A program made the translations under genes and the position numbers. A model generated the notes under the pieces. It saw only the letters and a program-made list of their open reading frames with translations, did no database searches and was not told the DNA's origin. From a virus, in IMG/VR virus record IMGVR_UViG_3300048672_001165, positions 29,685 through 93,684 of that record: DNA of 64,000 nt; one strand, given 5' to 3'. Position 1 is the stretch's first letter; each line of letters begins with the position of its first letter. Shown one piece after another: positions 8,064 to 63,539 of the stretch.

Positions 8064-11000
8064 ATGACAACCTATAGCCAACGAAGCCGAGACGGCCAGC
8101 CGTACGATTTCCCCCAAGGTTTTTCCCTAGGCGGCGTCAGTCTAGACGCAGATGACAGTACACGGTCTATCGGCCTACAAGTCCCGGGTCAAGATGCGAC
8201 CACGCTTTATACGTGGCTGGTACAAACCAGGCAACGCCTGAGCGCTGCACAACAAACACTTCCCTTTGCAACGCAGCAACAAATAACAGAAGGTGTCAGC
8301 AACGCTTTGTTGATCAGCCCGGCTTCTCTTAAGCAAGCGCTGGCTAGCCTCATTGGTGTAGCGCCTGTAGCGCTCGACAGCTTGGCAGAGTTTGCCGCAG
8401 CCATCGGAAATGATCCTAACTTGTCAACCACGGTTGATTCACAACTGGCTCAAAAGCTCAGTCTTTTAGGATCGACTGCAACCGGTCTGGCTGAAACACC
8501 GACACCAACCACCAACCTCAATAAAGCACAAGCCATCAACATCGAGTATTTGCTTGCTAAAATTGATGAAGCTCTGCTCAGTCTGAAAGCGTTGCCGAGT
8601 GCGCCTACACTGGACGGCTTAAGCCTAGCATTGATTGGTCAGACCTATACGCTTAACATGTCTGCTACCGCAGGTAGTGGCTTGACAATTGCTAGCTTTA
8701 ATGTGCTGATCAACGGTGGTAACTTACAAACGGTAGCTGCCACCAACGGCGCCGGTGTTCTTCAATGGACTGTCGTTGGTACTGAAAACCAAACGCTTAC
8801 TTTCAGTGTCGTGGCAGTTGATAACCGTGGCCGTACGGGCCCGTCTGCGACCCTGCAAGCCACCGCCACTGCAACAGCTATTTATACGCCTACCTTTGTC
8901 AGCCCTGCTCAGGATAACCAAGGTGGTCTATCTCCTCACCTGACCATTGAAACCAGTGCGTTCAGCTCCCCGTTTGTGAGCCAAACCCACGCCGCCACTG
9001 ATTGGGCCATCATCAATGTGTCTACAGGACAAGTGGACTGGCAGGCTTTAGCTGATACGGCTAACCTCACCACCCGAGCAATACCTCGCACGTATCTTAA
9101 GAACGCTACGCAGTATACCATCACGGTGCGTTACATCAGTGCATCAGGTCAGACCTCAAGCTGGGGAACGCTACACTTTGGCACTGCTGCTTCTCAAGCA
9201 GCGCCCTCGTCCGTGGCTGGTTTTGGATATGCCCTACCCGGCGAAAACTACGCTGCCACAGTCACGGCTGTGGCCTCTACTGCACTGGATACCACCATTG
9301 AGAGTTACTACTACTCTGTGGATAATGGTGTTACCAAGTTACCTAATTTGCTTGGTTCAGTCAACAATGTCATTGCGGCAGGATCAGACTTGACAGGTCT
9401 TTCTGGAACCATTGACATCCTCTTTTATGTTTACCGAAACTACTCTGGGTTTTCTCTGCCAGTTGCTAAATCGGTGGTAGTGGGCCAAACAACTGCTGGA
9501 GCTTTCCTGTTTCCTACAGAAGGCTTGACGGGGGTGAGTCAACACCCCACATTCACAGTGAGTTCATACACCAGCAACATCCCAACCGATAGTCACTTGT
9601 CCAGTACCTGGACAGTCACGGATGTAGCTTCTAATGAAGTCATTGATGAAATCCACAATAGTGTTTCTGCAAAAAACGCTTGGAGCCCCGTTGGGTTGAC
9701 GGCAGGTACACAGTACCGCGTATCGTGTATTCAGCACGGTACCATCTTTGTAGGCCTACCTGCCGTCACTGTGACGTGTACGACCACGACGACACCTGAG
9801 GCTTACTTGCCCAGCCAGGTCATTTCCACCACCAGTGAAAATAACGCCCAGATGGGCTTTAGTTTGTCGACCAATCAAGACGGCTCGTTGTTTGTTGCAG
9901 GTATTCCTGCTGCAACCATGTACACGTTCAGTACACCACACACCAACAGTGGCGCTGTTGATTTCATTAATACCGCCCTGGCGACGTCCATTAGAACCAT
10001 GTATGGTCTTAGTACGGACATCAATACGCCGATCATATACACGGGTTTAGCATCCGGCATGAATGTGTTTGGTAACGTCATGGTGTACAACACGCGTTTG
10101 CCTAACATTGTCATTGCCGGACGCAATTCATCAGGTACCATGGTGAGTACCTCTGACGTCTTGAACAGCGCCATCACGACTGGTGCGGATGGGTTGGCAT
10201 TTGTCAAGGGTTTTGCACAAACAGATATGGGTATTGACTTTGCTGTGAGTTCTGCAGCAGGTATCCAGTGGTTCCAAAACTCCTCTCTGGCAGCGACCAC
10301 CAGACCGTTCTTGTTGTCCAGCACAATTCCTCAAGACCCGCTGGGGTTGGGGATGTCGCTACAGAGTTATGGAGATAGTCTTTCCATCAGCGGAGATGGT
10401 AATCGCCTTGCTGTGAGTCTTCGTTGGGGTATCAATACCAACGTGGCCAGCCTGGTTGGGTTTGCCGTTTACGACTACAACTCAACCAACAATACGTGGT
10501 CTTCTCCTGTGATTAAAACAGGTATTGTCATGGGGGCGTGGAACTTACCCACTGAGTTCAGTGCCAGCAACTGGATGCAAATGAGCCGTGATGGTAAAGT
10601 CATTGCACTGGGTAACCCATGTAAGTTGTCTAACAATACAGGTAAAGGCGCTATCCAGTTTTGGGTCAGTGACCGAGGCTCTGACCTTTCAGGTGAGACC
10701 TGGACACTCCAGCAAACCCTGGAAGACGCTAGAGGCGATGCCATTGATGGCGGCATGTTTGGTTATAGCTTGGCCTTGTCATCTAACGGCAGTGTGCTGG
10801 TTGCAGCTTGTGCGGGTTATTTGAACGACAACGGCTGCGGTCGCGTAGACTTGCTGCTGCGCACAACCCCGACCTCACAAAGCTGGCGTCAAAAGAATTA
10901 CTCCATGGTGCCGACGGCAATCAATCCTGCTGAATTGACCAATGCTCACGTGGGCTCTGCCTTGACGATAAGTGCAGATGGTCGGGTAGCCATGGCGTCT

Positions 11001-11150
11001 CATTTGAAATACAACGCAGGGTGCGGTGCTGCGCTGGTGTGGAATTTACCTTCCAGCATGATCACCCCTTACAGAGATGCTGGATTAGACAGCATCCCCA
11101 GTAACACCACTGAAGTGAACAATTTTGTGACTCGCGTGTCACAGATCTAA
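8064..11150 (+). CDS. Tail fibre/adhesin paralogue 1 (Ig/FnIII-like repeats plus C-terminal beta-propeller)
   Basis: LDSLAEFAAAIGNDPNLSTT fibre motif; S/T-rich beta domains; C-terminal repeats of the form (F/M)G.SL.(L/I)S.DG. Confidence 0.75.
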   Translation: MTTYSQRSRDGQPYDFPQGFSLGGVSLDADDSTRSIGLQVPGQDATTLYTWLVQTRQRLSAAQQTLPFATQQQITEGVSNALLISPASLKQALASLIGVAPVALDSLAEFAAAIGNDPNLSTTVDSQLAQKLSLLGSTATGLAETPTPTTNLNKAQAINIEYLLAKIDEALLSLKALPSAPTLDGLSLALIGQTYTLNMSATAGSGLTIASFNVLINGGNLQTVAATNGAGVLQWTVVGTENQTLTFSVVAVDNRGRTGPSATLQATATATAIYTPTFVSPAQDNQGGLSPHLTIETSAFSSPFVSQTHAATDWAIINVSTGQVDWQALADTANLTTRAIPRTYLKNATQYTITVRYISASGQTSSWGTLHFGTAASQAAPSSVAGFGYALPGENYAATVTAVASTALDTTIESYYYSVDNGVTKLPNLLGSVNNVIAAGSDLTGLSGTIDILFYVYRNYSGFSLPVAKSVVVGQTTAGAFLFPTEGLTGVSQHPTFTVSSYTSNIPTDSHLSSTWTVTDVASNEVIDEIHNSVSAKNAWSPVGLTAGTQYRVSCIQHGTIFVGLPAVTVTCTTTTTPEAYLPSQVISTTSENNAQMGFSLSTNQDGSLFVAGIPAATMYTFSTPHTNSGAVDFINTALATSIRTMYGLSTDINTPIIYTGLASGMNVFGNVMVYNTRLPNIVIAGRNSSGTMVSTSDVLNSAITTGADGLAFVKGFAQTDMGIDFAVSSAAGIQWFQNSSLAATTRPFLLSSTIPQDPLGLGMSLQSYGDSLSISGDGNRLAVSLRWGINTNVASLVGFAVYDYNSTNNTWSSPVIKTGIVMGAWNLPTEFSASNWMQMSRDGKVIALGNPCKLSNNTGKGAIQFWVSDRGSDLSGETWTLQQTLEDARGDAIDGGMFGYSLALSSNGSVLVAACAGYLNDNGCGRVDLLLRTTPTSQSWRQKNYSMVPTAINPAELTNAHVGSALTISADGRVAMASHLKYNAGCGAALVWNLPSSMITPYRDAGLDSIPSNTTEVNNFVTRVSQI

Positions 11151-11154
11151 CTCT

Positions 11155-11215
11155 GCGGCATAAAACCACACTCGCGGCGAGAGGGCTAAAAAACCCTCTC
11201 GCCTTTTATATCGCT
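11155..11215. terminator. GCGGCATAAAA motif plus hairpin
   Basis: GGCGAGAGGG/CCCTCTCGCC stem followed by a T-rich tract. Confidence 0.7.
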
Positions 11216-11242
11216 TTTTTCTTTTTACATCACTTCAACATC

Positions 11243-14200
11243 ATGACTCATAGCGTACGCCTGCCTGGCGGTGAGACTTACAATTTTGAACAAGGTATTG
11301 CTATCAGAGGTGCTGTACTGTCGTCACCTGATGGAGCCAAAGTGCTCGGGTTGCAGTTGCCTGGGGACACTAGCCTCAGGCGCCTTTATGACTGGGTGAT
11401 TGAAGCCGAGACTCGCATCAGTGCATCTCAAGCGTCTGTACCGTTTGCGACCGGCCCTGAAGCTATTGCGGGGCTCAGTGCCACTAAGCCTGTGGGGCCT
11501 ATGGGTCTTAAGGCCATCTTTGATGCTATTCGCGCCAGCACACCCACCGCACTGGATACCTTTGCTGAGTTTGCAAACGCCATTGGAAATGATCCTCAGT
11601 TTGCAACGCATATCTTTGCACTGATCGCTGCTAAAGCACCCAGTGCTTCTCCGACGTTTACTGGACTGGTGACGCTACCAAACGTCACCAGTCAATCTAG
11701 CCCTCAGCAAGCGGTCAATATTGGCGACATGGAAGCGGCTATTGAAAATATGCTCTTAGGCTTGATGCCCCCGCCAAATGCGCCAGTGCTTGACGGTGTA
11801 TCATTTGCAGTGGTAGGCACGGACTATGTACTTTCAATGAGTGCTGTGCCCAGTGATCCGAGACTCTCTATTGCTGAGTTCCAAATCTCGTTTGGTACCA
11901 ATGCGCCTGTCGTCGTCACAGCAACAGGTAATTCAGCTGTTTACAGCTGGCCTGCTGCGGGTACCACTGGCGTGTCACTTGACATCACCGTTTTGGCTAA
12001 AGACAATAAGAATAAGTTCTCAACCTCCACCGTGAAAACCATCACGATGCTGGCTGAACTGATTCAACATCCAACGATCATTTACCCGGCTGCCAACGCT
12101 TCTAACGTTGAATTTGACCCGGTCATTGAGCTGAGCCCTTTTACGGTTAACGTCGGCTCAGATACTCACGTGGCGACCAGTTGGGTTATTCGTGAGATCA
12201 GCTCTCAAGCGGTGGTGTGGCAATCGACCACAGACGCAACCAACCTCACCACCATCCACGTACCTCTAGGCTACCTGGCAGGTAGCCGTCAATATACCGT
12301 TGAGGCGACGTATCACGGCCTCACGCTAGGTGTGAGCGGTGTAAGCCGTCAGAACTTTACAACGGCTGCTCAAAAGGTAGCTCCTGCTGCGTCGGTGAAC
12401 GGCAGCAGCAATGCTGTTTTTGATAATGCTGATTTGACGCTGGTTGTTAACAGCACCATGACGACGTCGCCTGATACCGCCGTTGTCAAATACAGCTACT
12501 CGATTGGCTCACCTAACAACCCAGTGGATAAACTGAGCGTTCTTTCACAAGAGACGCTGGTGATCCCCTATAATCAGGTGGTGTTCAATAACCAAAATCA
12601 AGCGACACTCTACGTGTGGGTCACTTACAACCATACCGGTGTGAGCGCTCAAGCTCAAATCACACTGACCAAATACGTGGCTCAGCAAGCAAGCTTCACG
12701 TACCCGTCCTATGTGAATAACGTGGCTTTGTTTGACATTCCTGTCAAGCCTGTTTTTCAAACCACAGCTTATGTGAGTAATGTGCCTGGTGATACGCATC
12801 AGTCTACTGTGTGGACGCTGACCAATCTTGACTCCAACTTTGTTGAACTGACCGAGACGACTGCCTCGGGCAATTTAACCAGCTGGACGCCTTCTAAACA
12901 GATGGCTGTAGGATCACATTACGCCGTCACAGCCAAACAAGTGGGTGCTTATAACACAGCAGGGACTCTGTCTAAAGTCAGTCAGTTTTATACTGAGATG
13001 AACAGCAGCGTCAAAGTGCAGCAATCTTCAAAAACACTCTCGCCTACCGCCTTGGCATCTGCCACCAGTATTGGTCTTGGCAGTGTGGCCATCAGCCACA
13101 CGGGTGACAAAATCATGTTTGGTGACTTGGCGGCAGCGTACGCTCGCGGCGCCGTTTATACACTAGGTCGATCTGTGCTGGGTTACAGCGAACAGTCTGC
13201 TAATCTGGTTGAAATCACGTCGCCTATTTTCATGGCGCCTGACAATACCTATTACCAGGGCTTTGGTTTTAGAAATGCACTCTCTCCTGACGGCAGCTTT
13301 GCTGTAGCGGGTGGGTTTAATTCGGTTGGGGATGCTAACCGGTACTCTAACGTCACGGTGTGGGATACTGCTTTGGGTAACGTGTACGGCTACGGAGCAC
13401 CTTCTGTTTTACCAGGAGATGCTAATAACGTCAACATCTCCCACACCTGGGGGTTGGCTGCGTCTAATGCCAAGAAGCGTGTAGTGTATCACAGCGCTTA
13501 CCGAACGCAAATCAATGGCATCAATGGTACTTGGAGGCATGTGGTCGATACCATCGCACCTAACTTTACAGACCAGGTGCAGCCTTTGTTCTTATCGAGC
13601 GACAATACCAGCTATAACGCAGCTCAGCAGTATGACCCGCGTTATCCGTTGATGGATGGCAAGTATGTCAATCTATCCATTTCTGCAGATGGCAACACCC
13701 TGGCGGTGTGCTCACCTTATCAAGCTGGTGCTAATGGAGACTTCGTCAACGTCGTCACCGTCTACCAAGTTGTCAATAAAGTCTGGGTTGTTGTAGACCG
13801 TTTCTCAGATGACATAGACCGCAGCTACACGGCACTGCAGGCTCAGAATGATCTGGCGTACATGAACACCATGAGCATGAGCGGTGATGGCAACACCATT
13901 GTGTTGGCTGGCCGTACCCAAACCATCAACGGCTCAACCAGCGGGGAAGTCAACGTCTTCACTAAAACCGCAGGCGTGTGGTCTCTCTCTAATACGCTGA
14001 ATCCAAACGTGTCCATTCTGGACCGAGTGGGTCTGGCTGGTTTGGGTGATATTGTGTTTGGTCAAGCTGTCAGCATCAACCACGATGGTACGGTGATGGC
14101 GGTACTCTACCAAGACCAAGCTCAACAAAAACCTGGTTTTTACGACATCTGGCGCCAAGAAAATGGGACTTGGGTTGAGATGGGTTACCGTATTGAGCCG

Positions 14201-17533: not shown

Positions 17534-18079
17534 ATGGTTCAAACTGTTTACGCCAAAGTTGATGAACACGGCCGCATTGACCAAATCTACAATGAGAAGT
17601 TTCTCATTGCCAACTCCAAGCCTTTGTCTGACTACGTCAAAGGCTTTGCACAAGAAGCACCCCCAGTCACGCATGCTCAGTACCTGCAGCAGCAAGCGCT
17701 GATTGATACGCAAGGCGTGCTGCAAGTCTCCTGGGTCGTCAAGAACTATACACTGGACGAACTCATCAACCGCATGTCGTTTCCTTTCAATGCGCAAGAC
17801 CTCACGCAAGCTATCGTAGACGCTTGTGAAGCGTTTGTTGATGAGCAGCTTGATCTCTTTGCTCAAAAGAAAGGCTACAAGAACATGGACCGTTTGGTCT
17901 CGTTTGTGACGTCGACGGTCGCCAGTTATAGTTACGACGCCAGCTTTGCAACTCAGCTGCGTGACCAAGTCTGGATTGAGTTCTATAAACTCATGGATCA
18001 ATTCAAAGCTCGTGAGCTGCAGCTGTCTAATTCAGCTCAACTTCTGCAGCGGCTACCCTCTTTGGTGTGGCCGGATTAA
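17534..18079 (+). CDS. Tail fibre assembly/chaperone-like protein
   Basis: AGGAG RBS; C-terminal LD.FAQ.KGY...SF..ST...A...RDQVW...Y...LP.LVWP pattern typical of small proteins encoded after tail fibres. Confidence 0.65.
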   Translation: MVQTVYAKVDEHGRIDQIYNEKFLIANSKPLSDYVKGFAQEAPPVTHAQYLQQQALIDTQGVLQVSWVVKNYTLDELINRMSFPFNAQDLTQAIVDACEAFVDEQLDLFAQKKGYKNMDRLVSFVTSTVASYSYDASFATQLRDQVWIEFYKLMDQFKARELQLSNSAQLLQRLPSLVWPD

Positions 18080-18103
18080 CCGACGTAACCTGATGCCTTA
18101 GAC

Positions 18104-18172
18104 ACGGCATACTCGCCCCTGGCAGCTTTCCCTCTTTGAGTGGAGGGTGCTGCCAGGGGCTATATGCCGCTT
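18104..18172. terminator. Bidirectional terminator between convergent genes
   Basis: CGGCATA...GCCCCTGGCAGC/GCTGCCAGGGGC...TATGCCG nested inverted repeat. Confidence 0.75.
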
Positions 18173-18985
18173 TTAAGGATTATTTTGAATTAGAGCTAGC
18201 GCTCTACTCTCGTCAGTCGTTTGCGCCGTGTAGAGCCGATTAGCTAGCTCCGTGGCCCCTTGTAGTTCGAGCTGTAGCGCATTAACAATCGCCAGCTGCT
18301 CATCAGCCTTATTTTTAAGCCCTATCAAGGTCAAAGCGGCATTTTGAGCTGCTGTTAAAGCCAGCACGGCGCTGTCGTCTTGGTAAGACTGTACAGTTGT
18401 TTTCAAGATGGTGAGCTGTGCATCCAAGTAAGCATAGATGGCTTGATGGCCTACAGCATCCCCCATCAGGATGGCGGTCTTAACTTCGTTAATGGCTTCA
18501 ACCAGATACTCTAACCCCACCAAGTTTTGAGCAGACGTCATGTGGGCGGTGGGCGTATAGTCCACAGGGCGGTTAAGCATGTTCTCCCAATGGGGAGGAC
18601 GGTTATCCCTATTGAGATTATCCAACAGAGCTTGAGCCGTATCGAAGTTTTTACTCCAACGACCACCCAGTTCTTGGTAATCAATAGCTACACTACTGAC
18701 TTGGCTGTTGAGAATCAGAATCGTTCGAAAGACCAGTAACCCACCTGTCATGGCGCTGGCTAGACTGAGCAGGTCAACGCACTTGTAATCGGTGCCTGGA
18801 TTCAAAACAGCGTTGGTATCTGTTCGTCGAACGACTAGGCTTTGTTCAAAGAAAGGCGAATGCTCTGGTACAACTGAACGTACCAGTTGAGAGCCCAATG
18901 TGTGGATCTCATTGACACGCTTGTTGGTGGGTGCAGTACCTGTGTAGTCTGCACTGCTGGCATTAGGGACAGGAGAAGTAGCCAC
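18173..18985 (-). CDS. Virion structural protein (baseplate/fibre-related)
   Basis: DYTGTAPTNKRVNE.H N-terminal motif, PFF..SL.V, IDYQELGG and W..M..RP..Y.PTAH; paralogous to the N-terminus of 19017..20933. Confidence 0.65.
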   Translation of the reverse strand: MATSPVPNASSADYTGTAPTNKRVNEIHTLGSQLVRSVVPEHSPFFEQSLVVRRTDTNAVLNPGTDYKCVDLLSLASAMTGGLLVFRTILILNSQVSSVAIDYQELGGRWSKNFDTAQALLDNLNRDNRPPHWENMLNRPVDYTPTAHMTSAQNLVGLEYLVEAINEVKTAILMGDAVGHQAIYAYLDAQLTILKTTVQSYQDDSAVLALTAAQNAALTLIGLKNKADEQLAIVNALQLELQGATELANRLYTAQTTDESRALALIQNNP

Positions 18986-19016: not shown

Positions 19017-20933
19017 TTAGGAAGCGTTTCGTTCAATGACAACAGACTCAAGTGCATACTTGACGTTGTTGACTGAACGTGTTTGAATCAGTTCAAACTG
19101 AACTTGATCAGTTTGAAACGTCATGTGAGTCGTCCAGACCCCTTTCGTGTCTGCAGGGTTATGTTGATAAGATCCAATCAAAACCCCATTTGCTCTCAAA
19201 TCAAAGTTAAGTGTTTGACCCGGCTCTACGTGTAGAGTGATGGTGATTTGATGACTTGTTTTAGCAGCGCTGGTGACCGCTTGCGTCCAATCTACCAAAG
19301 AGGTATTAACGCTAGAGCGTCTGCTTAAGAAGGAGCGCCCTACGCCTACTTTAGACAGCACAAAAGCAAACGGGTGGCTCACATACACCATGTTAGGGAT
19401 ATGTTCTACTATCGCTCCTGTACCAGCCCCAAAGGCGGCGTCTTGGCGACCAAAAGAAAAGTCAAAGTCTTGCCAACCACCAGAGAAGTAAGCGTTGGAG
19501 TTGACAACACTAAAGCAGTTGTGATGACGTTTGAAATAGTCATCTAAAACATCGATTTCATACAGACTCAATAGTCGGTTATAGACCAAGAATTCGATCA
19601 CTTGACCAGAGCTGTTAGGCAGAGCTTGCAAACCGACCAGTCCACCTGACTGGAGAGTCAGAGGCTTCTCTAGCCCAGACCACTTGCCGTACTGCCGAGC
19701 ATTTTGACTACTCAAAAAGTAGCTTTGATTCACATCACCCGTGCATGCAAAGTAAAGCACAGTTGCATCTTGGGCATGTCCTTGATAACTCTTAGCGTAA
19801 ACCATTCCGTTAATACGGATACCCACATCTTGAGTCAAGTCGATCTCAATAGTTTCGTGAGCTAGCTTGACTTGTCCTTTGAAGTCATTACTCACCACCA
19901 AGCACAAAGTGACTTCAGCACCCGTACTCACTGCTAAACCGCTGATGTCACTCACCGCACTACTCAGCGACAGGCCAGGCCCTTGAACAGTAGCCCCATT
20001 GAGCATCAAAGACCGAGACTGCCCCGTATGGTCTCTCCAGTACGTGGTATTGTTATCAGCCACTCTAGAGAAATCAAACCAGCAGGTCAAGTCCTGTATA
20101 TACTTAGGACTGTCAAAGTGCCTTTGAGTCAATGCCCACTTGGCAGCGATGTGTTTAAGGGCAAGCGCTTGCGTGATGTTTTGAAAGTATTTCTGTTGAC
20201 GACTATTCATCCACTTTTGCCTGACAAGCCTGTCTTGCAGCATGATGGTGCGGTCGACTGAATCGTCAATCAACGCTTTTTGTTCTAGTGTTTCTTTACG
20301 AATATTAAAAACTTGTTGTTCAATAGCGTCTGTGATGGACTGCTGCCTTTGATCAACAAGTTGGATCAACTCAGCATTCGTCGCCGGCCAGGCCACTTGT
20401 AAGATGTGGTCATGGATCGCCGTATCTTTGACATGCATGGCCGCTTCCAGTGCTTGTATAGGCACAGAGATCTGATCCATGTCGTAGTACGTGTAGAGTT
20501 GATGGATGTGAGGCGCAGGTGTAAACTGCTTGGGCTTTAAAATATCAGTGGTCCAATCAAACGTCTGATTTGGATCAAAGATAGCGTTGTACGCTGCAAA
20601 GAACGCCTGCCGGTTGGCGTACTCTGGACCACCCACATACTGCGCAGTGACGTTAACGCTGGTTGCAGTCACGCCAGCGGCCATCACAATGTTGCAGTGA
20701 ATTGCCTTTTTGAGTTCACGACTACTCAGACTCAGGAAGTCCCCCACATGGTAGTCCACCCCCTTGGTGAGCGTGACCCCTTGATCGGTTATGACGATCA
20801 AAGAGTTGCTATAAAAAGCACCCCACTCTGGAAGAATGAGTTTGTAAACAGGTACAGGGTAGTTCTCTGTTTTCAAGTTGCTTGCCGCTTGTCCTGTTTG
20901 GTCAAACGGTAGTAAAAACACAGTGTCTGTCAT
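19017..20933 (-). CDS. Virion structural protein
   Basis: PFDQTGQAASN, GAFYSNSL, AQYVGG and KPKQFTPAPHIH motifs; coiled coil and a beta-rich C-terminus. Confidence 0.65.
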   Translation of the reverse strand: MTDTVFLLPFDQTGQAASNLKTENYPVPVYKLILPEWGAFYSNSLIVITDQGVTLTKGVDYHVGDFLSLSSRELKKAIHCNIVMAAGVTATSVNVTAQYVGGPEYANRQAFFAAYNAIFDPNQTFDWTTDILKPKQFTPAPHIHQLYTYYDMDQISVPIQALEAAMHVKDTAIHDHILQVAWPATNAELIQLVDQRQQSITDAIEQQVFNIRKETLEQKALIDDSVDRTIMLQDRLVRQKWMNSRQQKYFQNITQALALKHIAAKWALTQRHFDSPKYIQDLTCWFDFSRVADNNTTYWRDHTGQSRSLMLNGATVQGPGLSLSSAVSDISGLAVSTGAEVTLCLVVSNDFKGQVKLAHETIEIDLTQDVGIRINGMVYAKSYQGHAQDATVLYFACTGDVNQSYFLSSQNARQYGKWSGLEKPLTLQSGGLVGLQALPNSSGQVIEFLVYNRLLSLYEIDVLDDYFKRHHNCFSVVNSNAYFSGGWQDFDFSFGRQDAAFGAGTGAIVEHIPNMVYVSHPFAFVLSKVGVGRSFLSRRSSVNTSLVDWTQAVTSAAKTSHQITITLHVEPGQTLNFDLRANGVLIGSYQHNPADTKGVWTTHMTFQTDQVQFELIQTRSVNNVKYALESVVIERNAS

Positions 20934-29739: not shown

Positions 29740-30342
29740 ATGCGTTTTCTCAAAGTCCTCATGGCAGCCATGCTGCTGATCGTCGGTGTCGTCTTCGGCG
29801 CACATGCCCAAGCAGCACCCTTCGGCCTGATGGCCAACCCGACCTTCCTGCCCAACAACCCGCTGGTCACCGTCAAGGCCGGCTACCTGCAGCCGATCCC
29901 GAGCTGGCAAGGCAGCGGCAAGGCCAACGTCGGCCTCTACCCGGTGATCGACGGCCTCTACATCGGCCAAGCGGCCGGCACCATCTCCGGCTCGGCCAGC
30001 ATGCTGCCCTATGCTGCCAACCCGAGTGTGACCCAAGTCGTGGCCGTGCCGACCAGCTGCCCTCAGCAACGTGTCGATGTGACCTTCGCCTTCATCGGCG
30101 GCCCGGTCTGGAGCCTGGCGCAAGACGCTTTCAAGATCACGGTGAGCAACAGCGTGCAGCGTTACAGCTGGATCACGGCGCCGGCCAAGACGGCAGGCCC
30201 TGACCAAGTCTACAACTACCTGCTCAACCTGCCGGTGGGCAAGACCTACATGGTCAGCCTGGGCAGCGCCATGAGCTACAAGGCCAACACGCCTGCTCCG
30301 GCTGGTATCCAGGTGAAGTACTTCCAGATCACATGCATCTGA
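29740..30342 (+). CDS. Exported protein with Sec signal peptide
   Basis: MRFLKVLMAAMLLIVGVVFGAHAQA|AP signal peptide; beta-rich mature part with 2 Cys; strongly C/G-ending codons. Confidence 0.7.
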   Translation: MRFLKVLMAAMLLIVGVVFGAHAQAAPFGLMANPTFLPNNPLVTVKAGYLQPIPSWQGSGKANVGLYPVIDGLYIGQAAGTISGSASMLPYAANPSVTQVVAVPTSCPQQRVDVTFAFIGGPVWSLAQDAFKITVSNSVQRYSWITAPAKTAGPDQVYNYLLNLPVGKTYMVSLGSAMSYKANTPAPAGIQVKYFQITCI

Positions 30343-30962: not shown

Positions 30963-31646
30963 ATGGCCAAACTAGGCAACCGAAAAGCAGCTGAAGCTAT
31001 CATCATGAAGTGGATTCCTCAGATCATCCCGAATGGGGTGAACGAGACAATCTACAAAGAAAAGCTAGCTGCTTTAACCGATGAAGAGTTTCACAACCTC
31101 ATGCTCACACTCAAAGCAGGAGGCACTCTTCCCATCTATACACCTAACTACAACGATACTCGAATCAATACCAAGCACCTGTTCAGGTTAGCCAAGACCA
31201 TGGGTGTGCAGCTCTTTCACCGCATCCAAGTGCCTGAGTCTGAAACGAATCGCCCTTACCTGACACCTCGTAAATACTTGGTGGTGAGGCTGCCTTACCG
31301 ACGAGCGGCTCAGCTGCTTGTCAAAAAGATCAGCATCCCTGCAGACAACAACTCTGTTGACTTCTATACAGGTCAAGTCACCGGCTCCAGTAAAGGCGCT
31401 TCCATTTCTCTGCCTGAGCTGCGCATGCTCTCAGCCATGAATCTGTCCCACTCTGTTGTGGAACTAGAGAAATACAGAGGCGGTGATGAGGGTGGTTTCA
31501 GAGCGATGAACTACACGCTCCACCAGCAGGGTCGAGTCTCCATGAAAGAAATCAGTCAATTTGCCTCTGGTGTGCGTTCCACCTGGACACTGAAGCAATT
31601 CCTCAACGCGGCCCACCTGAAGAACACCTTAACCGATAAAGCATGA
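30963..31646 (+). CDS. rpoB: Virion RNA polymerase beta subunit, C-terminal fragment (phiKZ gp149-like)
   Basis: LPYRRAAQLLVKKISIP...VDFYTGQVTGSSKGASISLPE and KYRGGD motifs of the split beta C-terminus. Confidence 0.85.
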   Translation: MAKLGNRKAAEAIIMKWIPQIIPNGVNETIYKEKLAALTDEEFHNLMLTLKAGGTLPIYTPNYNDTRINTKHLFRLAKTMGVQLFHRIQVPESETNRPYLTPRKYLVVRLPYRRAAQLLVKKISIPADNNSVDFYTGQVTGSSKGASISLPELRMLSAMNLSHSVVELEKYRGGDEGGFRAMNYTLHQQGRVSMKEISQFASGVRSTWTLKQFLNAAHLKNTLTDKA

Positions 31647-32374
31647 ACAACCCCTCTCAACTCTACATTGATATCCAAGCCCTACTCGATACCCGTCTGG
31701 GGTGTCTCATGGGGCTACACGAAGAGTTTGCTCTTTTCGTCACCAAACGAAAAGACTACTACACCAGAGAAATCGACTGCTTTACTCACCCTGAGATGGG
31801 CGAGCTAAGTCGAGAACTCTTTGAAGAAACTCTTTCTAAACAAGGCCCTTCTGTTCTTGACCACAGTCCTATGACCTGTATGGTCGAATGGGTGAGGAAA
31901 TGGCTAGAATACTTTGTCGTACAAGAAGTTAACTCCCCTATTAAAGGTGGGGTCAATATCACGATCAATACCTTTCCTTTTGAGCTAGACTCAGAAGAAC
32001 GAATTGAACTAATAGAAACTTTAAAAGTTTATTGGGGCCCTATTTTCCCCATGTCGGTTATTTGTGTTGACCCACAGAAAATAAGCTTGATTAATGACAG
32101 CCACAGTACCTACATCTTTTACTATGCTCTGGACTGGCTCAAAGCTAACGAACAAGTCATCAACGGCGCTAGTGCGTTTAATAAAACGGTGTATCTACCT
32201 AAGATCAACTTAGTCAGAGCACTGACTAAAGAAGAACGTACACAACTCCAACAAGAAGGTATTGATCCTTTTGATTTGATCAGTGAAGCGTTTAAGATGA
32301 AGTTGAAAGTAGAGTTCTTACCGATACAGCTCTACTGCATCGACGCTCCTGAAAACCCTTCTTGTACGAAGTGA
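31643..32374 (+). CDS. Conserved phiKZ-like hypothetical protein
   Basis: ATGA overlap with the gp149-like gene; LYIDIQALLDTRLG and INTFPFEL motifs. Confidence 0.65.
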   Translation: MNNPSQLYIDIQALLDTRLGCLMGLHEEFALFVTKRKDYYTREIDCFTHPEMGELSRELFEETLSKQGPSVLDHSPMTCMVEWVRKWLEYFVVQEVNSPIKGGVNITINTFPFELDSEERIELIETLKVYWGPIFPMSVICVDPQKISLINDSHSTYIFYYALDWLKANEQVINGASAFNKTVYLPKINLVRALTKEERTQLQQEGIDPFDLISEAFKMKLKVEFLPIQLYCIDAPENPSCTK

Positions 32375-32379
32375 AGTGA

Positions 32380-32421
32380 GCAGCATAAAAGGCAGGCCTA
32401 AGAGCCTGCCCCATATGCCGC
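32380..32421. repeat. REP-like terminator element, copy 2
   Basis: GCAGCATAAAAGGCAGGCCTAAGAGCCTGCCCCATATGCCGC. Confidence 0.8.
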
Positions 32422-32424
32422 ACT

Positions 32425-32458
32425 GCAATTTTTTCTAATCACATATCACTAAGATGAA
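32425..32458 (+). promoter_or_regulatory. Putative early promoter
   Basis: GCA-N12-CACATATCAC-TAAGA-TG, followed by a leader hairpin and TTAGGAGT RBS. Confidence 0.7.
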
Positions 32459-32494
32459 GTAGGGAATGTATCTCTACAACTTAGGAGTATTACC

Positions 32495-32764
32495 ATGTCT
32501 GTCCGTCAAACCCTGAGCGTCTCGACTTCGGTCGAGACGTTTTTGTTTAACTTCAGCTCGACTTCGGTCGAGCTGGTTCTGAACCAGCGCGTGGCTGGCC
32601 GCGTTCGCGCGGCCACAGTCCGCGCTTTGTTCGCGGCCGCAGTGGCCGCCTTCTCGGCCGGCGCTGGCGCCGCCGAGGTGGATGACTATTGCGACAACGC
32701 GGTCGTCGCCGGGCTGAACTGGCAAGCGGCGATCGATGACATATTCACTGCAGCGATGCAGTGA
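32495..32764 (+). CDS. Small early protein on a hairpin-tiled sequence (may be a structured or dual-function RNA)
   Basis: AGGAG RBS, 89 aa; consecutive stem-loops including three UUCG loops and one GCGA loop. Confidence 0.5.
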   Translation: MSVRQTLSVSTSVETFLFNFSSTSVELVLNQRVAGRVRAATVRALFAAAVAAFSAGAGAAEVDDYCDNAVVAGLNWQAAIDDIFTAAMQ

Positions 32765-32859
32765 AGTTTCCCAGTAGTGAGAAAGAGGGTCAGTAGGCTC
32801 TCTTTCTTTTGCCTGTGCTTACCAGGCTTTGTAGTAAGCAAATCAATTAGGAGTGAATT

Positions 32860-33207
32860 ATGTCTTTCTACGCTGATGTTCTTGCCGGGCGAGTTCAAAT
32901 GCCCCACCCGCAGTCATGGGACAGCGTGTTTGGGGGCTTTGACCAGATTGAGGGGGCGACTCAGGCCGCCTCGCTGGCGAAGATCCCCAGCTGCCGCTGG
33001 GGTATTCTGGCGTTCGACGACCAGAATACCAACCCGGTCGCCATCCCCATTTTCCCCCGGCTTGGGGGAAATGGCCTGGAAGAGGCGGTTCAGGCCGCCG
33101 CTGCGGTGGCCGGCATCTTGTACTCGACCACCCACGTGGTCGACGTGCGGCTGCGCGTGGCGGCTGTCCTGCCTGGCCTGCAAAGTCACGCCAGCTTCAC
33201 CTTCTGA
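32860..33207 (+). CDS. Hypothetical early protein
   Basis: TTAGGAGT RBS, 115 aa; hairpin-dense coding sequence. Confidence 0.65.
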   Translation: MSFYADVLAGRVQMPHPQSWDSVFGGFDQIEGATQAASLAKIPSCRWGILAFDDQNTNPVAIPIFPRLGGNGLEEAVQAAAAVAGILYSTTHVVDVRLRVAAVLPGLQSHASFTF

Positions 33208-33219
33208 AGGGGGGTTATC

Positions 33220-33903
33220 ATGACCCCCTTCAACGAGCCGCGCGTTTACGCGGCGGGGTTGTCTACGGACGACCCCACGCAGGCCTTCGCTTATGGCGAA
33301 GGCCTCTTCGTCCGGCAGCGCAACAAGGTGGCGTTCACTACGTCCGGCAATTTCATTGCCGAGCTGGCGCAGGGGCTCTGGTACCAGATCAATGGTACCC
33401 GGGTGAAAAAGCCCGCCACGGCGGTGATTAAGCCGGACATCGCAGTCCGGGCGTTTTCGCATGACCGCTACATGGCGGTGATGTCAGAAATCGCCACGGA
33501 CTGCGAAGCGGTCCAGGGGTTGCTGGAAGGACAGCCCCTGGTCCAGAACTTAGACCTAGTGCCGCGAATGGCACCGCATACGCCAGCTGCCCCGGGAGAA
33601 ATCCCGGAATTTAAGCTGGTGGCATCGCCGAACAGCGGCAGCTCCTTCACGTCGGATGTAAAGTTCGACGTGAAGTTTGGCAATCTGTCTTTCCGAGACG
33701 AGACGGGCAACCGCATCGTCGTGAACGACCTGCTTCCGTATGCGCAGGAGGCATTTCGATTTGACGTGACTATCATGAAGTTTCAGCAGCTGGCCGCCCT
33801 GGTGCGGCTGGCGCTGACCTTTAATGAAAGTCAGACGTCTTGGAAAATCCAATGGGTCTTCGTGCCGCAAACCGGGCTGTATTACAGCCTTGAGGCGGCA
33901 TAA
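33220..33903 (+). CDS. Hypothetical early protein
   Basis: 227 aa; RBS and start sit inside hairpin 33205-33232; hairpin-dense; ends in GCGGCATAA. Confidence 0.7.
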   Translation: MTPFNEPRVYAAGLSTDDPTQAFAYGEGLFVRQRNKVAFTTSGNFIAELAQGLWYQINGTRVKKPATAVIKPDIAVRAFSHDRYMAVMSEIATDCEAVQGLLEGQPLVQNLDLVPRMAPHTPAAPGEIPEFKLVASPNSGSSFTSDVKFDVKFGNLSFRDETGNRIVVNDLLPYAQEAFRFDVTIMKFQQLAALVRLALTFNESQTSWKIQWVFVPQTGLYYSLEAA

Positions 33904-33957
33904 AGCCCAGAGGCGTACAAAGGATTAAACCCCCTTTGTACGCCTCTTTATTTTTTC
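33895..33957. terminator. Bidirectional terminator
   Basis: GCGGCATAAA plus AGAGGCGTACAAAGG/CCTTTGTACGCCTCT stem between convergent genes. Confidence 0.75.
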
Positions 33958-34383
33958 TCACTTTTTCTTCTGAGAGGCCATGAATGAATCATAGTTCATG
34001 GCAGGCACACCAATGGTCATTTCATCAGGTGCCATAGAGACTTCTACAGTACTCTCATCGAGTTGAGGGGCGCTGCGGGCTGCTCCGTTTTCTACGCGGC
34101 CAATCGCTTTCAAACCACCTTGATCTAGCAAAGCAGCAATCAAACCAGCAGCTTGTGCATTGGCGTTAGCTGCTGTATCATCCACCTTCAGCTTAGCCAG
34201 TTGAATAGCAGCATGGTCCATATCGCGCAGCAAACTACCCAGCGCTCCTATTTTCTCACTGTGCATCTTGCCCAGGTCTTCACCTGCAGCAGCCACAATA
34301 GAGTTTACCAGCGCTTTTCTTGTTTGACGAGCAAAGCGCAAATCCACATCCGCATCAGCCAGATGACTCTTCAGATCCAACAT
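33958..34383 (-). CDS. Hypothetical protein
   Basis: ATG at 34383 has GGAGG 8 nt upstream; helical protein. Confidence 0.6.
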   Translation of the reverse strand: MLDLKSHLADADVDLRFARQTRKALVNSIVAAAGEDLGKMHSEKIGALGSLLRDMDHAAIQLAKLKVDDTAANANAQAAGLIAALLDQGGLKAIGRVENGAARSAPQLDESTVEVSMAPDEMTIGVPAMNYDSFMASQKKK

Positions 34384-34482
34384 GATAGACACCTCCTAAC
34401 AAGGGGATAAGCCTTATTACAAAATACATTAATCACAAATTACTTACTAGAACTTATTCAAATATTTATTCAAGAAAGCTTC

Positions 34483-35764: not shown

Positions 35765-35960
35765 GTAGGCTGCTTAACTTTCCAAAGTAAGTGACTTCAA
35801 CTTGTGAAAGAAAGGGAATAAGTCAATGGTTCTGACTGAAACCCACCTGTCGCCAGAGATGTTTGTGTTCGAGGAAATCCCTCCTGAGCACATTCCACAT
35901 TACCTGGCTCTGTTGTCTGAAGGCCAAATACCCACGGCCGAATTGATCAAGGAACGCATC

Positions 35961-37556
35961 ATGACCACCAACTGCATCGACACCACCACCATCGTCACCG
36001 ACGTCGCCTACGGTGGCGACCAGACCGGCATCAGTGCCGCCCCGGCGCTGACCCTGATCAGCAATCCGCTGGCCGGCGATGATGCCGGCGCTTCCTCGTA
36101 CGAAGCTCCGACTCCGACCACCGCTGCCCCGGTCGTCATCGCCAACGCCGCCTGGGCGCCGGTGGCACGGCCGTCCTACGCCGAGCCGATCCCCTACAAG
36201 GCCGGCCTGAGCACGGACGTGCAAACGCAAGCGTACGTCTACGAAGGCGAGCGGTATATCCGTCACAAGACGGTTGAGCCGTTTGTCACGTCCGGCAACT
36301 TCGGCAAGGAACGCAACGAGGGTAAGTGGTACAAGATCGGCGCAGCGGGCGCCAAGGTCGCTGGCGCCAACGGTACCGTCCTGGCCCCGGCCAAGCCCGC
36401 CGCTTTCAACGAGCCGGTGCAGTACGTTGTCGGCCTCGACACGGCCGACCACACCCAGCCGGTCGACGCGCCGGACGGCAACCGCTACGTGCGGGAACGA
36501 AAGGTGCCGGCGTTCATCGCCAGCGGCGACTTCGAAGCCGAACTGGCCGCCGGCAAGTGGTTCAAGATCCGCGGCCCCAAGCCGGTCAAGGCCGAAGTGA
36601 TCATGGCCCCCAAGGCCAAGACCCTCACCGGCGCTCCGGCTTCGTCGGAAGCCCTGCAGAAGCTGGCCGAGCGCGCCAACAACACCAACCTGGCCAAGCT
36701 GGTGTCCCCGGTGAAGACCGCGTCGCTGCTGCAAGCTGCAGCGGCCGGCTCCGGCCACAAGGCCAAGCTGGCTGGCCTGGTCGCCGCCTCGACCGGCAAC
36801 GATGAGTGGCGTGAGGACACCCTGAACATCTGGACCCGCTCGGCGCAGCCGGTCGGCCAGCTGCTGGACGTCTCCGCTGACAACAACGTCGGCCTCGACC
36901 TCGGCCTGGACAAGGACGGCAACCCGATCTCGGGCGGCACGTTCCGTACCGTCAAGGGTCTGGAACTCTGGCTGCGCCTGAAGGACCAGTCCTTCGAGGC
37001 GATGGTCCAGACGCTGCGCACGGCCAGCAGCGGCAAGCTGCACCATGTGGTCAAGGACCACCCGGAGCATTTCAGCGACCTGAGCCCGGAAATCATCGCG
37101 CTCATCGGCGCGGTGCTCTGGGACCACCTGCTCAAGGCCGAGCACGTCGCTCACCGTGCTGAACTGGCCCGCGCCGGCCAGATCGTGTCGAAGTACATGC
37201 ATGGTGAAGAGATCGACGAAGCCACCGGCGCCGTCCTGACGCCGGGCAGCTGGCGCCACACCACCGAGGCCTGGTGGATCGTCCCGCTGGCGCAAGCCAT
37301 GCAGGATGCGCTGCTGACCGCGGACGCCGAAGGTCGTGATGCGGCTGAAGTCGCCGTCGATTGGGACGGAACGGCCAAGCAGGCCTTCGAAGACAACAAG
37401 AAGCGCATCGAGCGCCGGCAGGCGCAACGTGTCGACTTCAATGCGCCTGCCCGGCGCAGCTCGTTCATCACGGACTACCGTGATCCGCCCAAGCCCAAGC
37501 ACGGCAAGAAGGTCAAGGTCGAGACGGCCGCGCCTGCCAAGAAGGGCAAGAAGTAA
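35961..37556 (+). CDS. Early protein with two tail-spike-N-like repeats, a NADAR-like domain and a basic tail
   Basis: Codon usage switches to C/G-ending at ATG 35961 (AAGGA RBS; ORF is open from 35826). Repeats EPIPYKAGL...GKWYKI and EPVQYVVGL...GKWFKI; DTLNIWTRS..PVGQLL...GTFRTVKGL.LWL resembles phage NADAR proteins. Confidence 0.65.
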   Translation: MTTNCIDTTTIVTDVAYGGDQTGISAAPALTLISNPLAGDDAGASSYEAPTPTTAAPVVIANAAWAPVARPSYAEPIPYKAGLSTDVQTQAYVYEGERYIRHKTVEPFVTSGNFGKERNEGKWYKIGAAGAKVAGANGTVLAPAKPAAFNEPVQYVVGLDTADHTQPVDAPDGNRYVRERKVPAFIASGDFEAELAAGKWFKIRGPKPVKAEVIMAPKAKTLTGAPASSEALQKLAERANNTNLAKLVSPVKTASLLQAAAAGSGHKAKLAGLVAASTGNDEWREDTLNIWTRSAQPVGQLLDVSADNNVGLDLGLDKDGNPISGGTFRTVKGLELWLRLKDQSFEAMVQTLRTASSGKLHHVVKDHPEHFSDLSPEIIALIGAVLWDHLLKAEHVAHRAELARAGQIVSKYMHGEEIDEATGAVLTPGSWRHTTEAWWIVPLAQAMQDALLTADAEGRDAAEVAVDWDGTAKQAFEDNKKRIERRQAQRVDFNAPARRSSFITDYRDPPKPKHGKKVKVETAAPAKKGKK

Positions 37557-54791: not shown

Positions 54792-56234
54792 ATGCTGCGC
54801 ATTTCTGCTATCAACGAAGCCATTCAAATCGCTAAGGTCATGGAAAGTAAAGGTCTGCGCATGCTGCCTGCTTCCCAAACTCCTCTGGCGACTCTGGTGG
54901 AGAAGTCGTTCTGTACGACTCAAGACTCCGTCATGAACTCCGGTACCAACGGCGAGTATGAACCGGACGCTCGGTTCATTTCGTCTCGTGCTGAAGGCTT
55001 TGGCCAAAGTACCCGTGGCGACCTCGACGGGCATACCCGTGAGCTGATGAACCTGAAGGACAACATTGCTAAGGTGGTGACTGACCACATGCGCTACGCG
55101 CGTTCGGTGGCGTCCCCTGTGATTGTGGAATGCATCAACGCTTTCACCAATCAACTGGCTGGTTACCACATCGATCCGTCCAAGGACGTGAAGATCACGA
55201 TGTATGACCTGCCGAGCATCCTGTACGACGCTTCGATGCTTCAAGAAGTCAAGAAGTATGCAGGCGCGCCTGCTCGCAAAGTGAATGACCTGGCACTACC
55301 AATTGACATCAATGAAGAAGAGCTGGTTCAAAAGCTCAGTGGTGACAAGGAAGTCGCCACGTGGCTGGCTCTATTGGGAGACGGCTTCTTGCCGTCTGTG
55401 TGGTCGAAGTGGTTTACCAACATCACCAACGACTCCTTGAGCTACATCAGAGACGAATCCGATCTGGATATGGTCTGTGCTATGTTTTTGCTGGCACAAG
55501 TTTATATGGATTCGCCAATGAAGGGCGTGAACTCTTCTCTGGCCAACTACAGTACCACGTTGGCGGCTGTGCGTGATACAGCTGCTAACGTGCTGTCATT
55601 TGTGTCTGATCAGATGCAGTCCTATAAGGACACTGGCATGATCATCAAGAACCACTTTGATACGGAAATCGTGGTGGTCAAGCCCGTCTTTGACGAGTGG
55701 ACTTACAGCAACCCGCGAGGTCTGATCATTGCAGCGTGTTCTCTGAAGAACCCGCCCCGCTATGTGAAGCAACTGACTGAACAAGCTGACCAGCTGATCA
55801 AGAAGTGGGAGCTGCACGTGGCGTCGATCAACCGCATCCAAGACAATACCCGGTTCATGGTGTCTCGTGATATCCTGGAGTCGGTGGTTCAAGGGGTGGT
55901 GGCAGCTAATGCCAAGAAGATCTATGGCCCACTTGTGAACAACCCGGAAACGTTTGACCTGGCCACGACGCCGGAGTTCATCCAGTTCAAGAAGCGTCTG
56001 GGAGTGATCCTCACCAAGCTGGAGTACAACGACTTCAAGAACGTCAGTAAGCTCATGACGCTGGTGGTGGGCAAGTGCGTCTTCTACTTCAGCAGTGCTT
56101 ATGAGATCCTCTCAGGTATTGATGAAGCAATGGAACAAAATCCGAAGCTTTCTTTGAACGAAGCAGCTTACCTGGCGCGTGTGAAGTACATCGCCAACTG
56201 GTGCTTCGATCAGACGCTGGTCACGGCGCTGTAA
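54792..56234 (+). CDS. Conserved protein (phiKZ gp177-like)
   Basis: 480 aa; synteny between the gp178-like and gp176/gp175-like genes. Confidence 0.65.
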   Translation: MLRISAINEAIQIAKVMESKGLRMLPASQTPLATLVEKSFCTTQDSVMNSGTNGEYEPDARFISSRAEGFGQSTRGDLDGHTRELMNLKDNIAKVVTDHMRYARSVASPVIVECINAFTNQLAGYHIDPSKDVKITMYDLPSILYDASMLQEVKKYAGAPARKVNDLALPIDINEEELVQKLSGDKEVATWLALLGDGFLPSVWSKWFTNITNDSLSYIRDESDLDMVCAMFLLAQVYMDSPMKGVNSSLANYSTTLAAVRDTAANVLSFVSDQMQSYKDTGMIIKNHFDTEIVVVKPVFDEWTYSNPRGLIIAACSLKNPPRYVKQLTEQADQLIKKWELHVASINRIQDNTRFMVSRDILESVVQGVVAANAKKIYGPLVNNPETFDLATTPEFIQFKKRLGVILTKLEYNDFKNVSKLMTLVVGKCVFYFSSAYEILSGIDEAMEQNPKLSLNEAAYLARVKYIANWCFDQTLVTAL

Positions 56235-58081: not shown

Positions 58082-58201
58082 CCATGGGCCTGAATCATTT
58101 ACTTTTCAAAAGTAATAAGGCTTTGTGATCAAGTGCTAGCAGCGTCTACACTGAACAGCACTGAGCGTTTTTCAACCCCCATCCCAAAAGGAACACGAGT
58201 C

Positions 58202-58642
58202 ATGAGCAAGCATGAGCAATACGAAGCGATCAAGGTCGCCCTGGGTGCACAAGTCGAAGTCGTTGACGGTGGCGTGACCATCGCTGACGACCAGTACTAC
58301 GTGGTCGCCGAATCCGTCGCCAGCCTGAGCAAGGAAGTCATCAACCAGGTCAACGGCTACAACGGCGACTACCAGGCCGCCGCTGCTGTCGTCATGGGCG
58401 AGCAAGCCCTGAAGATGCTGGCCGGCGACGACAGCCTGTCCGAAGTGGTCGGCAACGCTGACGCCGGCGGCACCATGGTGACCAGCCTGACGCAGCGCGA
58501 GCGCACCTTCACCAACCCGCGCACCGGCGAGGCCCAGACCACCAGCGGCCACACCACCATCAAGGTCCGCACCGCCACGCCGGGCCTGCGCCTGGCCAAG
58601 CACGACCTGGAAGAGCTGCGAAAGACGCACTTCCCCAGCTGA
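58202..58642 (+). CDS. Early protein of unknown function, probably highly expressed
   Basis: AAGGA RBS, ATG 58202; extreme C/G-ending codon bias; followed by a hairpin and TTTTATGCC. Confidence 0.75.
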   Translation: MSKHEQYEAIKVALGAQVEVVDGGVTIADDQYYVVAESVASLSKEVINQVNGYNGDYQAAAAVVMGEQALKMLAGDDSLSEVVGNADAGGTMVTSLTQRERTFTNPRTGEAQTTSGHTTIKVRTATPGLRLAKHDLEELRKTHFPS

Positions 58643-63448: not shown

Positions 63449-63493
63449 AAAACAAGATTGCAGAAATACGCAATCACATATAACAACTATGAG
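63449..63493 (+). promoter_or_regulatory. Putative early promoter
   Basis: AAAACAAGATTGCA-N12-CACATATAAC-AACTA-TG; leader hairpin and TTAGGAGT RBS as at 32425. Confidence 0.7.
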
Positions 63494-63539
63494 ATAAGGA
63501 ATGTCTTCTTATCCAAATGTGTTACTTTAGGAGTTTGAC

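Follow-up and report, generated by a model that had tools for sequence, protein, structure and literature searches.

Pervasive folding of protein-coding sequence is known from positive-strand RNA viruses, where it is called genome-scale ordered RNA structure (GORS), and the genomes of single-stranded RNA phages are likewise heavily folded. In this work we have investigated folding of a similar kind in a double-stranded DNA phage. The window which we analysed has 64,000 nt and is part of a freshwater metagenome contig of 93.7 kb, on which it spans bases 29685-93684; the element in question consists of three open reading frames (ORFs), here called orfA, orfB and orfC, which lie at 32495-33903 of the window behind a putative early promoter and whose coding sequence is dense with hairpins. 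As in GORS, the folding pervades the coding sequence, is generic and without conservation of position, and has an energy far below that of shuffled controls (by 30% here). It differs from GORS in that the folded molecules would be mRNAs of a double-stranded DNA phage, in that four short units and not a whole genome are folded, and in that the folding is tied to a class of promoter and leader. In the literature which we searched for GORS-like whole-body folding of an mRNA class in DNA phages, no description was found.

Parts of this arrangement occur in other systems. Hairpins of the type found in the Escherichia coli ompA leader and in terminators act as stabilisers at the 5' and 3' ends of messages, and at our locus hairpins also bracket the message at its predicted 5' end and at its 3' end; here, however, the coding body is folded too, and the stabilising role is a putative one. 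The promoter-early stem-loop (PeSL) cassettes of T4-type phages are mobile and carry a sigma-70-like promoter (PMC2839356). Our contig resembles them in its repeated modules of stem-loop and early-type promoter, which flank orphan genes, occur in four copies and are joined to other sequence in relatives. It differs in that the promoter is of the phiKZ type and the module includes a leader hairpin which is predicted to be transcribed; moreover, genes flanked by PeSL have not been reported as internally folded. Lastly, the mitochondrial genes of hairworms (Nematomorpha) contain perfect inverted repeats of up to 284 bp (PMC6649704). There, as here, the inverted repeats lie inside functional protein-coding sequence and both arms are coding, whereas the phage orphan genes have many short stems (6-13 bp), some with G-U pairs. 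What is new here is a class of four units with a shared promoter variant and a covarying leader, which covers the three deepest folding troughs of the contig.

Results

An earlier, sequence-only reading of this DNA had described the three ORFs as tiled end to end with RNA stem-loops and had named eleven of these, all of which we found in place. Stems of at least 7 bp on the + strand number 19.9 per kb in the region compared with 7.0 per kb across the window, and 68% of the bases in the region are paired in the local minimum-free-energy (MFE) structure. The longest perfect palindromes are of about 20 nt. Folding was scored as a z value in 100-nt tiles, with dinucleotide shuffles made tile by tile as the reference, because shuffling of whole genes inflates z through local heterogeneity of composition. 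Within the region the tiles averaged a z of -2.5 to -3.1, compared with -0.75 elsewhere, and the 600-nt running mean fell to -3.86 at 32901-33500, which is the minimum of the whole contig (contig mean -0.80, standard deviation 0.65). The MFE difference from shuffles (MFED) was 30% for orfA-C and 9% elsewhere on the contig. The same analysis of an unrelated viral contig (locus L060) gave a z of about -0.2. Although the hairpins are dense, they are not strictly end to end, since the tiles at 32801, 32851, 33651 and 33701 have z values near 0 (+0.42 to -0.45).

We have shown that this excess of hairpins is independent of GC content and of protein family. The view that GC content does not explain it had been reached by eye, and it is borne out by four genes with 63-65% GC and GC-rich third codon positions (high GC3) which are not folded (z values in Table 1). 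One of these controls, the gene at 35826-37556, is especially useful: its product carries two tandem copies of the domain of about 55 aa which also opens orfC; behind them lie a conserved C-terminal region and a tail rich in Lys. This product matches no Pfam or PHROG family and has a 605-aa homologue, at 41% identity, on another phage contig. Tile z values in the paralogous copies were -3.1, +0.55, 0.0 and -1.6, compared with -4.7, -3.8 and -3.7 in the orfC domain. When the DNA sequences are aligned, identical residues, a G-L-S-T-D stretch among them, are encoded by GGG, TTG, TCT and AAT in orfC and by GGC, CTG, AGC and AAC in the paralogues. The unusual codons of orfC are exactly those which pair in the stem, and the paralogous copies have no stem. 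The hairpins in orfC are thus not dictated by the protein, because copies of the same domain at the same GC content use other codons and do without them.

The orfA-C unit is one of four on the contig which we have shown to form a class with a shared early-type promoter variant, a covarying leader and GC-rich orphan genes. The units have the same layout, namely TGCA, 12-13 nt, a decamer related to TATATTAC, about 10 nt and then a hairpin. The sequence TATATTAC is the early element of phiKZ (PMC7058600, Table 2), and it is resembled by the promoter variants CACATATCAC, CCTATATAAC and CACATATAAC, each with TGCA upstream. The early promoter of the sequence-only reading is therefore present as a phiKZ-early-like element; by this resemblance the units may be expressed early. 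A sigma-70-like promoter was sought in 32200-34200 and none was found. The leader hairpin starts 10 nt past the decamer in four of four units, close to the predicted 5' end. Its stems differ among the four copies on the contig yet stay complementary, while the core GGAATGT is constant and the loop is AUGU(A/C). It was a search of the contig for this core that yielded the fourth copy, at window coordinate -9927, and the independent z profile shows that the unit behind it is strongly folded, with an MFED of 32%.

In the sister units the MFED is 18-32%, whereas the remainder of the contig has 9%. When the 600-nt troughs of the contig are ranked by depth, three units occupy the first three places and the other unit, with patchier folding, comes sixth; tiles inside and outside the units differ with p = 1e-10 (Mann-Whitney). 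Early-type promoters which lack the leader hairpin head unfolded genes. The folded units come to about 4.3 kb of the 93.7 kb in total. Viral contigs scanned for the leader pattern gave chance matches only, and the best-looking of them, L060, is the unrelated, unfolded contig mentioned above. One sister unit contains two paralogous genes, G1 and G2 (32% identity, E = 7e-12); no support was obtained for a kinship of G1 and G2 with three AT-rich genes downstream (E = 0.9). Another, U3, has a 20-nt perfect palindrome near 63911-63930, and the idea that its ORF from 63540 encodes a ring nuclease gains no support from Pfam and PHROGs, which give no match for the product. In relatives' contigs the hairpin-promoter-leader module at 32379-32488 adjoins unrelated sequence, and the part of orfA which lies 5' of position 32591 has been exchanged for other sequence in runs X2 and X7. 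This recalls a PeSL-like modular shuffling of orphan cassettes.

Are these heavily folded sequences genes at all? We conclude that orfA, orfB and orfC are real protein-coding genes. When codon frequencies were trained on the other GC-rich genes and the six frames compared, the annotated frame was clearly the best for each of the three and for the ORFs of the sister units. Among the substitutions listed for relatives, we used 25 well-supported sites, 12 in orfB and 13 in orfC. Sixteen of the 25 fall in codon position 3, and most are synonymous; counted by ORF, the listed changes at this position are 7 of 12 in orfB and 10 of 13 in orfC. The insertions and deletions listed within ORFs are in frame, being insertions of 3 and 6 nt in a relative's orfA and a change of 3 nt in orfB, or, for frameshifting ones in orfB, are compensated within 4-13 nt; three single-base ones lie just outside the ORFs. 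Around the end of orfA, a zone which begins at 32702-32776 and ends at 32808 is replaced or variable in a relative. For orfC there is a 96%-identical orthologue. Its N-terminal 60 aa or so match the two repeats in the 576-aa ORF at 35826-37556 and the 605-aa protein of the other phage (P0004), and its C-terminal part matches P0003, a 153-aa protein on the same contig as P0004. Pfam and PHROGs searches gave no family for any of the three ORFs, nor for the remaining GC-rich orphans. The single-sequence AlphaFold model of orfC was unusable (predicted local distance difference test score of 32), and ESM Atlas matches below 0.9 were at chance level.

Whether the hairpins matter as RNA or as DNA is less clear. 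The evidence is mixed and leans to the sense RNA, and we infer that selection acts on the RNA. The ratio of sense to antisense folding energy is 1.02-1.10 in eight of eight unit genes, whereas the other 57 genes have a median near 0.95 (p = 0.003), and G+T is enriched on the sense strand of the unit genes (p = 0.0002). There are 124 G-U pairs on the sense strand and 76 on the antisense strand, and the orfA-C unit has six tetraloops of the UNCG/GNRA class in the sense reading and none in the antisense reading. We also found that natural variation respects the fold. With the 25 substitutions introduced, the local MFE changed from -523.1 to -524.5, compared with -506.8 ± 8.1 for matched random sets. 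Two pairs have undergone double changes which keep them paired: 33456/33489, from U-A to C-G, is fully compensatory with both changes synonymous, and 33289/33297 went from G-C to the wobble U-G. The changes at 32937, 32970, 33111, 33397 and 33289/33297 keep pairing solely as G-U on the sense strand. A count of G-T against A-C internal mismatches had too few events to be of use. In one relative, a 6-nt in-frame insertion extends hairpin 2 to a perfect 28-nt palindrome, which suggests a supply of new stems by template switching; hairpins probably arise through such palindrome-perfecting mutations and are then kept.

The local elements of the orfA-C unit are collected in Table 1 together with the sister units and controls. 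Within orfA there are twin C(UUCG)G hairpins with a spacing of 36 nt, and a duplication (D1). The first orfA hairpin is terminator-like and could act as an attenuator or end a short leader RNA. The stem-loop after orfA is a probable terminator or attenuator. The three ORFs of the proposed early operon thus stand, whereas it is uncertain that they form one operon, because this terminator-like hairpin separates orfA from orfB. The Shine-Dalgarno (SD) sequence of orfC, which lies in a G-rich ribosome-binding site (GGGGGG), has a predicted pairing probability of 0.86, and the hairpin that would sequester it fits translational coupling of orfB to orfC. An Rfam scan gave nothing at the gathering score and only chance-level matches at E values up to 5, and a scan for tRNA and tmRNA found none.

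Table 1. Positions in the window of the orfA-C unit, its sister units and the control genes (negative positions lie upstream of the window; RBS, ribosome-binding site)
Feature	Position	Strand	Remarks
Upstream hairpin module	32379-32421	+	Ends the region of the preceding gene; part of the repeated regulatory cassette; recurs with different flanks in relatives' contigs
Early-type promoter variant	32424-32449	+	TGCA, 12 nt, CACATATCAC; common to three other units
5' leader hairpin	32459-32477	+	7-bp stem, loop AUGUA
orfA	32495-32764	+	89 aa, Ala-rich orphan; AGGAG RBS; tile z -3.7, -2.2, -3.1
First orfA hairpin	32515-32542	+	12-bp stem followed by T-run, 20 nt into the ORF; from terminator scan
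orfA/orfB stem-loop	32779-32808	+	13-bp stem, U-rich tail
orfB	32860-33207	+	115 aa, orphan; AGGAG RBS; z -2.1 to -6.0
SD hairpin	33208-33230	+	10 bp; orfC SD paired with codons 2-4; immediately 3' of the orfB stop
orfC	33220-33903	+	227 aa, two domains; dinucleotide z -4.2
Bidirectional terminator	33909-33947		16 bp; common to the convergent gene 33958-34392
Sister unit U3	63457-64000	+	Same promoter variant; leader hairpin at 63499; GC-rich ORF from 63540 off the contig end; z -2.8 to -3.35, MFED 24%
Leader-hairpin unit, locus L117	-19084 to -17584 (contig 10600-12100)		Paralogous GC-rich genes G1 and G2; MFED 18%
Leader-hairpin unit, locus L118	-9984 to -9184 (contig 19700-20500)		Two small ORFs, 113 and 81 aa; MFED 32%
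GC-matched control gene	29740-30342		z -0.88
Internal hairpin control, 576-aa orphan gene	35826-37556	+	GC 65%, GC3 0.84; z -1.5
GC-matched control gene	58133-58642		z -0.43
GC-matched control gene, 741 aa	Outside the window		z -0.35

The contig is that of a distant phiKZ-like giant phage, a conclusion to which two findings lead: a split beta subunit of a multisubunit RNA polymerase (phrog_3233) is encoded at 30963-31646, and the proteins of the contig share only about 25% identity with their counterparts in giant Pseudomonas phages, phiKZ and Phabio among them. A DNA-level search of phage records for relatives gave no match, the protein matches there being at 25% identity only, and a search of viral contigs and of metagenome contigs also found none; relatives of about 95% identity are present in several freshwater runs. 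About 48-49% of all bases are G or C, and several short islands reach 59-68%. We also note that the + strand of this genome of 48% GC carries a set of genes with GC3 of 0.75-0.85, and only some of these are folded.

Discussion

What could a phage gain from folding a few of its messages so thoroughly? Any statement of the purpose is a guess. The anatomy of the unit combines a 5' hairpin, a body of short stems, an SD-sequestering hairpin before orfC, strong terminators and GC-rich sequence with few AU-rich single-stranded stretches. Because these five features fit resistance to single-strand endonucleases and to decay from the ends, we favour the reading that folding makes a small class of messages resist single-strand-specific endonucleases and end-dependent decay and hence makes them long-lived; we would give it a probability of roughly 45%. 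According to this reading, the mRNA of orfA-C would be held densely folded in numerous short hairpins whose stems measure 6-13 bp. The leader hairpin would shield the 5' end and the terminator hairpins the 3' end, while the hairpins of the body would do away with single-stranded cleavage sites rich in AU. The ribosome would still be able to unwind stems so short, and no stem in the body seems long enough to be an obvious substrate for RNase III. A more specific version, which we regard as conceivable but doubtful, is a regulon of "armoured" early messages, in which the leader and the folding of the whole body keep orphan mRNAs, possibly with counter-defence functions, translatable while RNases destroy other RNA. 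These RNases could be the host degradosome, the collateral activity of Cas13 or Csm6, or HEPN abortive-infection nucleases.

If selection indeed keeps a class of phage messages folded, phage genes would carry information in the structure of their mRNA, as a third layer in addition to protein sequence and regulation. Giant phages have shielded DNA but exposed RNA, and such folding might be the way in which they safeguard the products of their first genes. A leader hairpin together with a folding energy 25-30% below shuffled sequence could serve as a computable marker for such genes in metagenomic phages, and the units could provide natural templates for nuclease-resistant bacterial mRNAs. Orphan proteins, finally, may be partly shaped by the folding needs of their own RNA.

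Several of our observations weigh against long-lived folded messages. The background of the contig is itself raised, as the mean tile z of -0.75 and the MFED of 9% outside the units indicate, and one unit, U1, is folded only in patches. The sequence-only reading had attributed the folding to selection on synonymous sites. Synonymous choices do contribute, as the stem codons of orfC show when compared with its paralogues, and by dinucleotide shuffles the region lies far below both the rest of the contig and the GC-rich controls; a local synonymous shuffle, however, gave z values of -1.7 to -2.2 for orfA-C and of -1.7 to -2.0 for some ordinary neighbours. Since these neighbours match orfA-C, at least part and probably much of the excess is written in the amino-acid sequence, beyond synonymous sites, an example being the STSVE motif which the twin UUCG hairpins of orfA encode twice. 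The G-U pairs and stable tetraloops had been taken as signs of selection on RNA rather than DNA. The sense bias in both is real, but the UNCG/GNRA loops are absent from the three sister units, and the argument from G-U pairs is weaker than had been stated because z is nearly the same on the two strands (-3.1 and -2.8 with dinucleotide shuffles). The result with natural variants is statistically weak, the natural MFE being reached by 4 of 213 random sets (p of about 0.02, for the 25 listed sites only), and the variants preserve the antisense fold equally well. Hairpin positions coincide between G1 and G2 in 4 of 10 cases, against 3.1 expected, and are thus not conserved; it would appear that general foldedness is kept and not particular elements. 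The openness of initiation regions exceeds that of gene bodies only a little, so that the idea of ribosome-binding windows being kept open comes down to a slight effect.

Could the hairpins then be palindromes of the DNA, with no function in RNA? They might be a by-product of template switching in orphan cassettes which evolve fast under weak constraint, or structures which promote recombination and so aid the movement of cassettes from phage to phage. Many stems are perfect palindromes with only Watson-Crick pairs, and their 4-nt centres are self-complementary. The near-equal z on both strands and the equal preservation of the antisense fold leave room for such palindromes, and the turnover of positions between paralogues, the palindrome-extending 6-nt insertion, the replacement and rearrangement of orfA in relatives and the recurrence of the promoter module with other flanks all agree with them. 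A DNA-level cause does not account so easily for an excess tied to a class of transcripts defined by promoter and leader, for sense strands which fold better in every unit gene although in the majority of other genes it is the antisense strand that does so, for natural changes which keep pairing solely as sense-strand G-U, or for UUCG, UACG and GNRA loops which within the orfA-C unit exist only in the sense reading. On balance we consider this explanation unlikely. We hold it to be rather improbable that the hairpins of leader and body are recognition signals for a phage RNA-binding protein which sets the timing, localisation, export or translation of a small regulon. The leader would suit this role well, with its conserved loop core and stems which covary in four units, and so would the predicted coupling of orfC through its SD-sequestering hairpin. 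The body hairpins, on the other hand, have no motif in common and do not form a repeat family, their loop classes differ among units, their positions are not conserved between paralogues, and no candidate binding protein was identified.

The sequence-only reading had proposed an explanation by type III or type VI CRISPR, in which folding would specifically block pairing of the CRISPR RNA or keep messages intact under collateral RNases. Transcripts are the exposed component of giant phiKZ-like phages, and the armour-like anatomy is real. With only about 4.3 kb of 94 kb folded, however, the phage would not be hidden from spacers against its other transcripts, and none of our results connects the folding with these systems. 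Moreover, no hairpin resembles a CRISPR repeat (CRISPR-DR) family in Rfam, and Pfam and PHROGs show no anti-CRISPR or ring-nuclease family among the unit proteins. LbuCas13a is reported to be robust whatever the target gene, the timing of its expression or the target location (PMC9712115), which also speaks against a specific block. This explanation seems very unlikely to us. We give equally little credence to the notion that the unit serves chiefly to make RNA, which would act on host sensors or RNA-binding proteins as a decoy or sponge, with the ORFs secondary and, at orfA, a short leader RNA ended by the first hairpin. It is true that a terminator-like hairpin stands 20 nt into orfA, that the orfA protein is of low complexity and partly dictated by the hairpin arms (STSVE twice), and that orfA varies strongly among relatives; but codon usage picks the annotated frame, the insertions and deletions in orfA are in frame, the changes in orfB and orfC are mostly synonymous, and orfC has protein homologues.

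Other folded regions of the window

Some folding was also noted outside the four units. The top antisense-strand folding outlier of the window, 18076-18225, is strong on the + strand as well; since the genes 17534-18079 (+) and 18173-18985 (-) converge on it, a bidirectional terminator is the probable explanation. Moderate folding was also observed within ordinary genes at 55101-55700 and 1001-1600, where the 600-nt mean z is -2.5 and -2.3, respectively, and where there is no leader hairpin.

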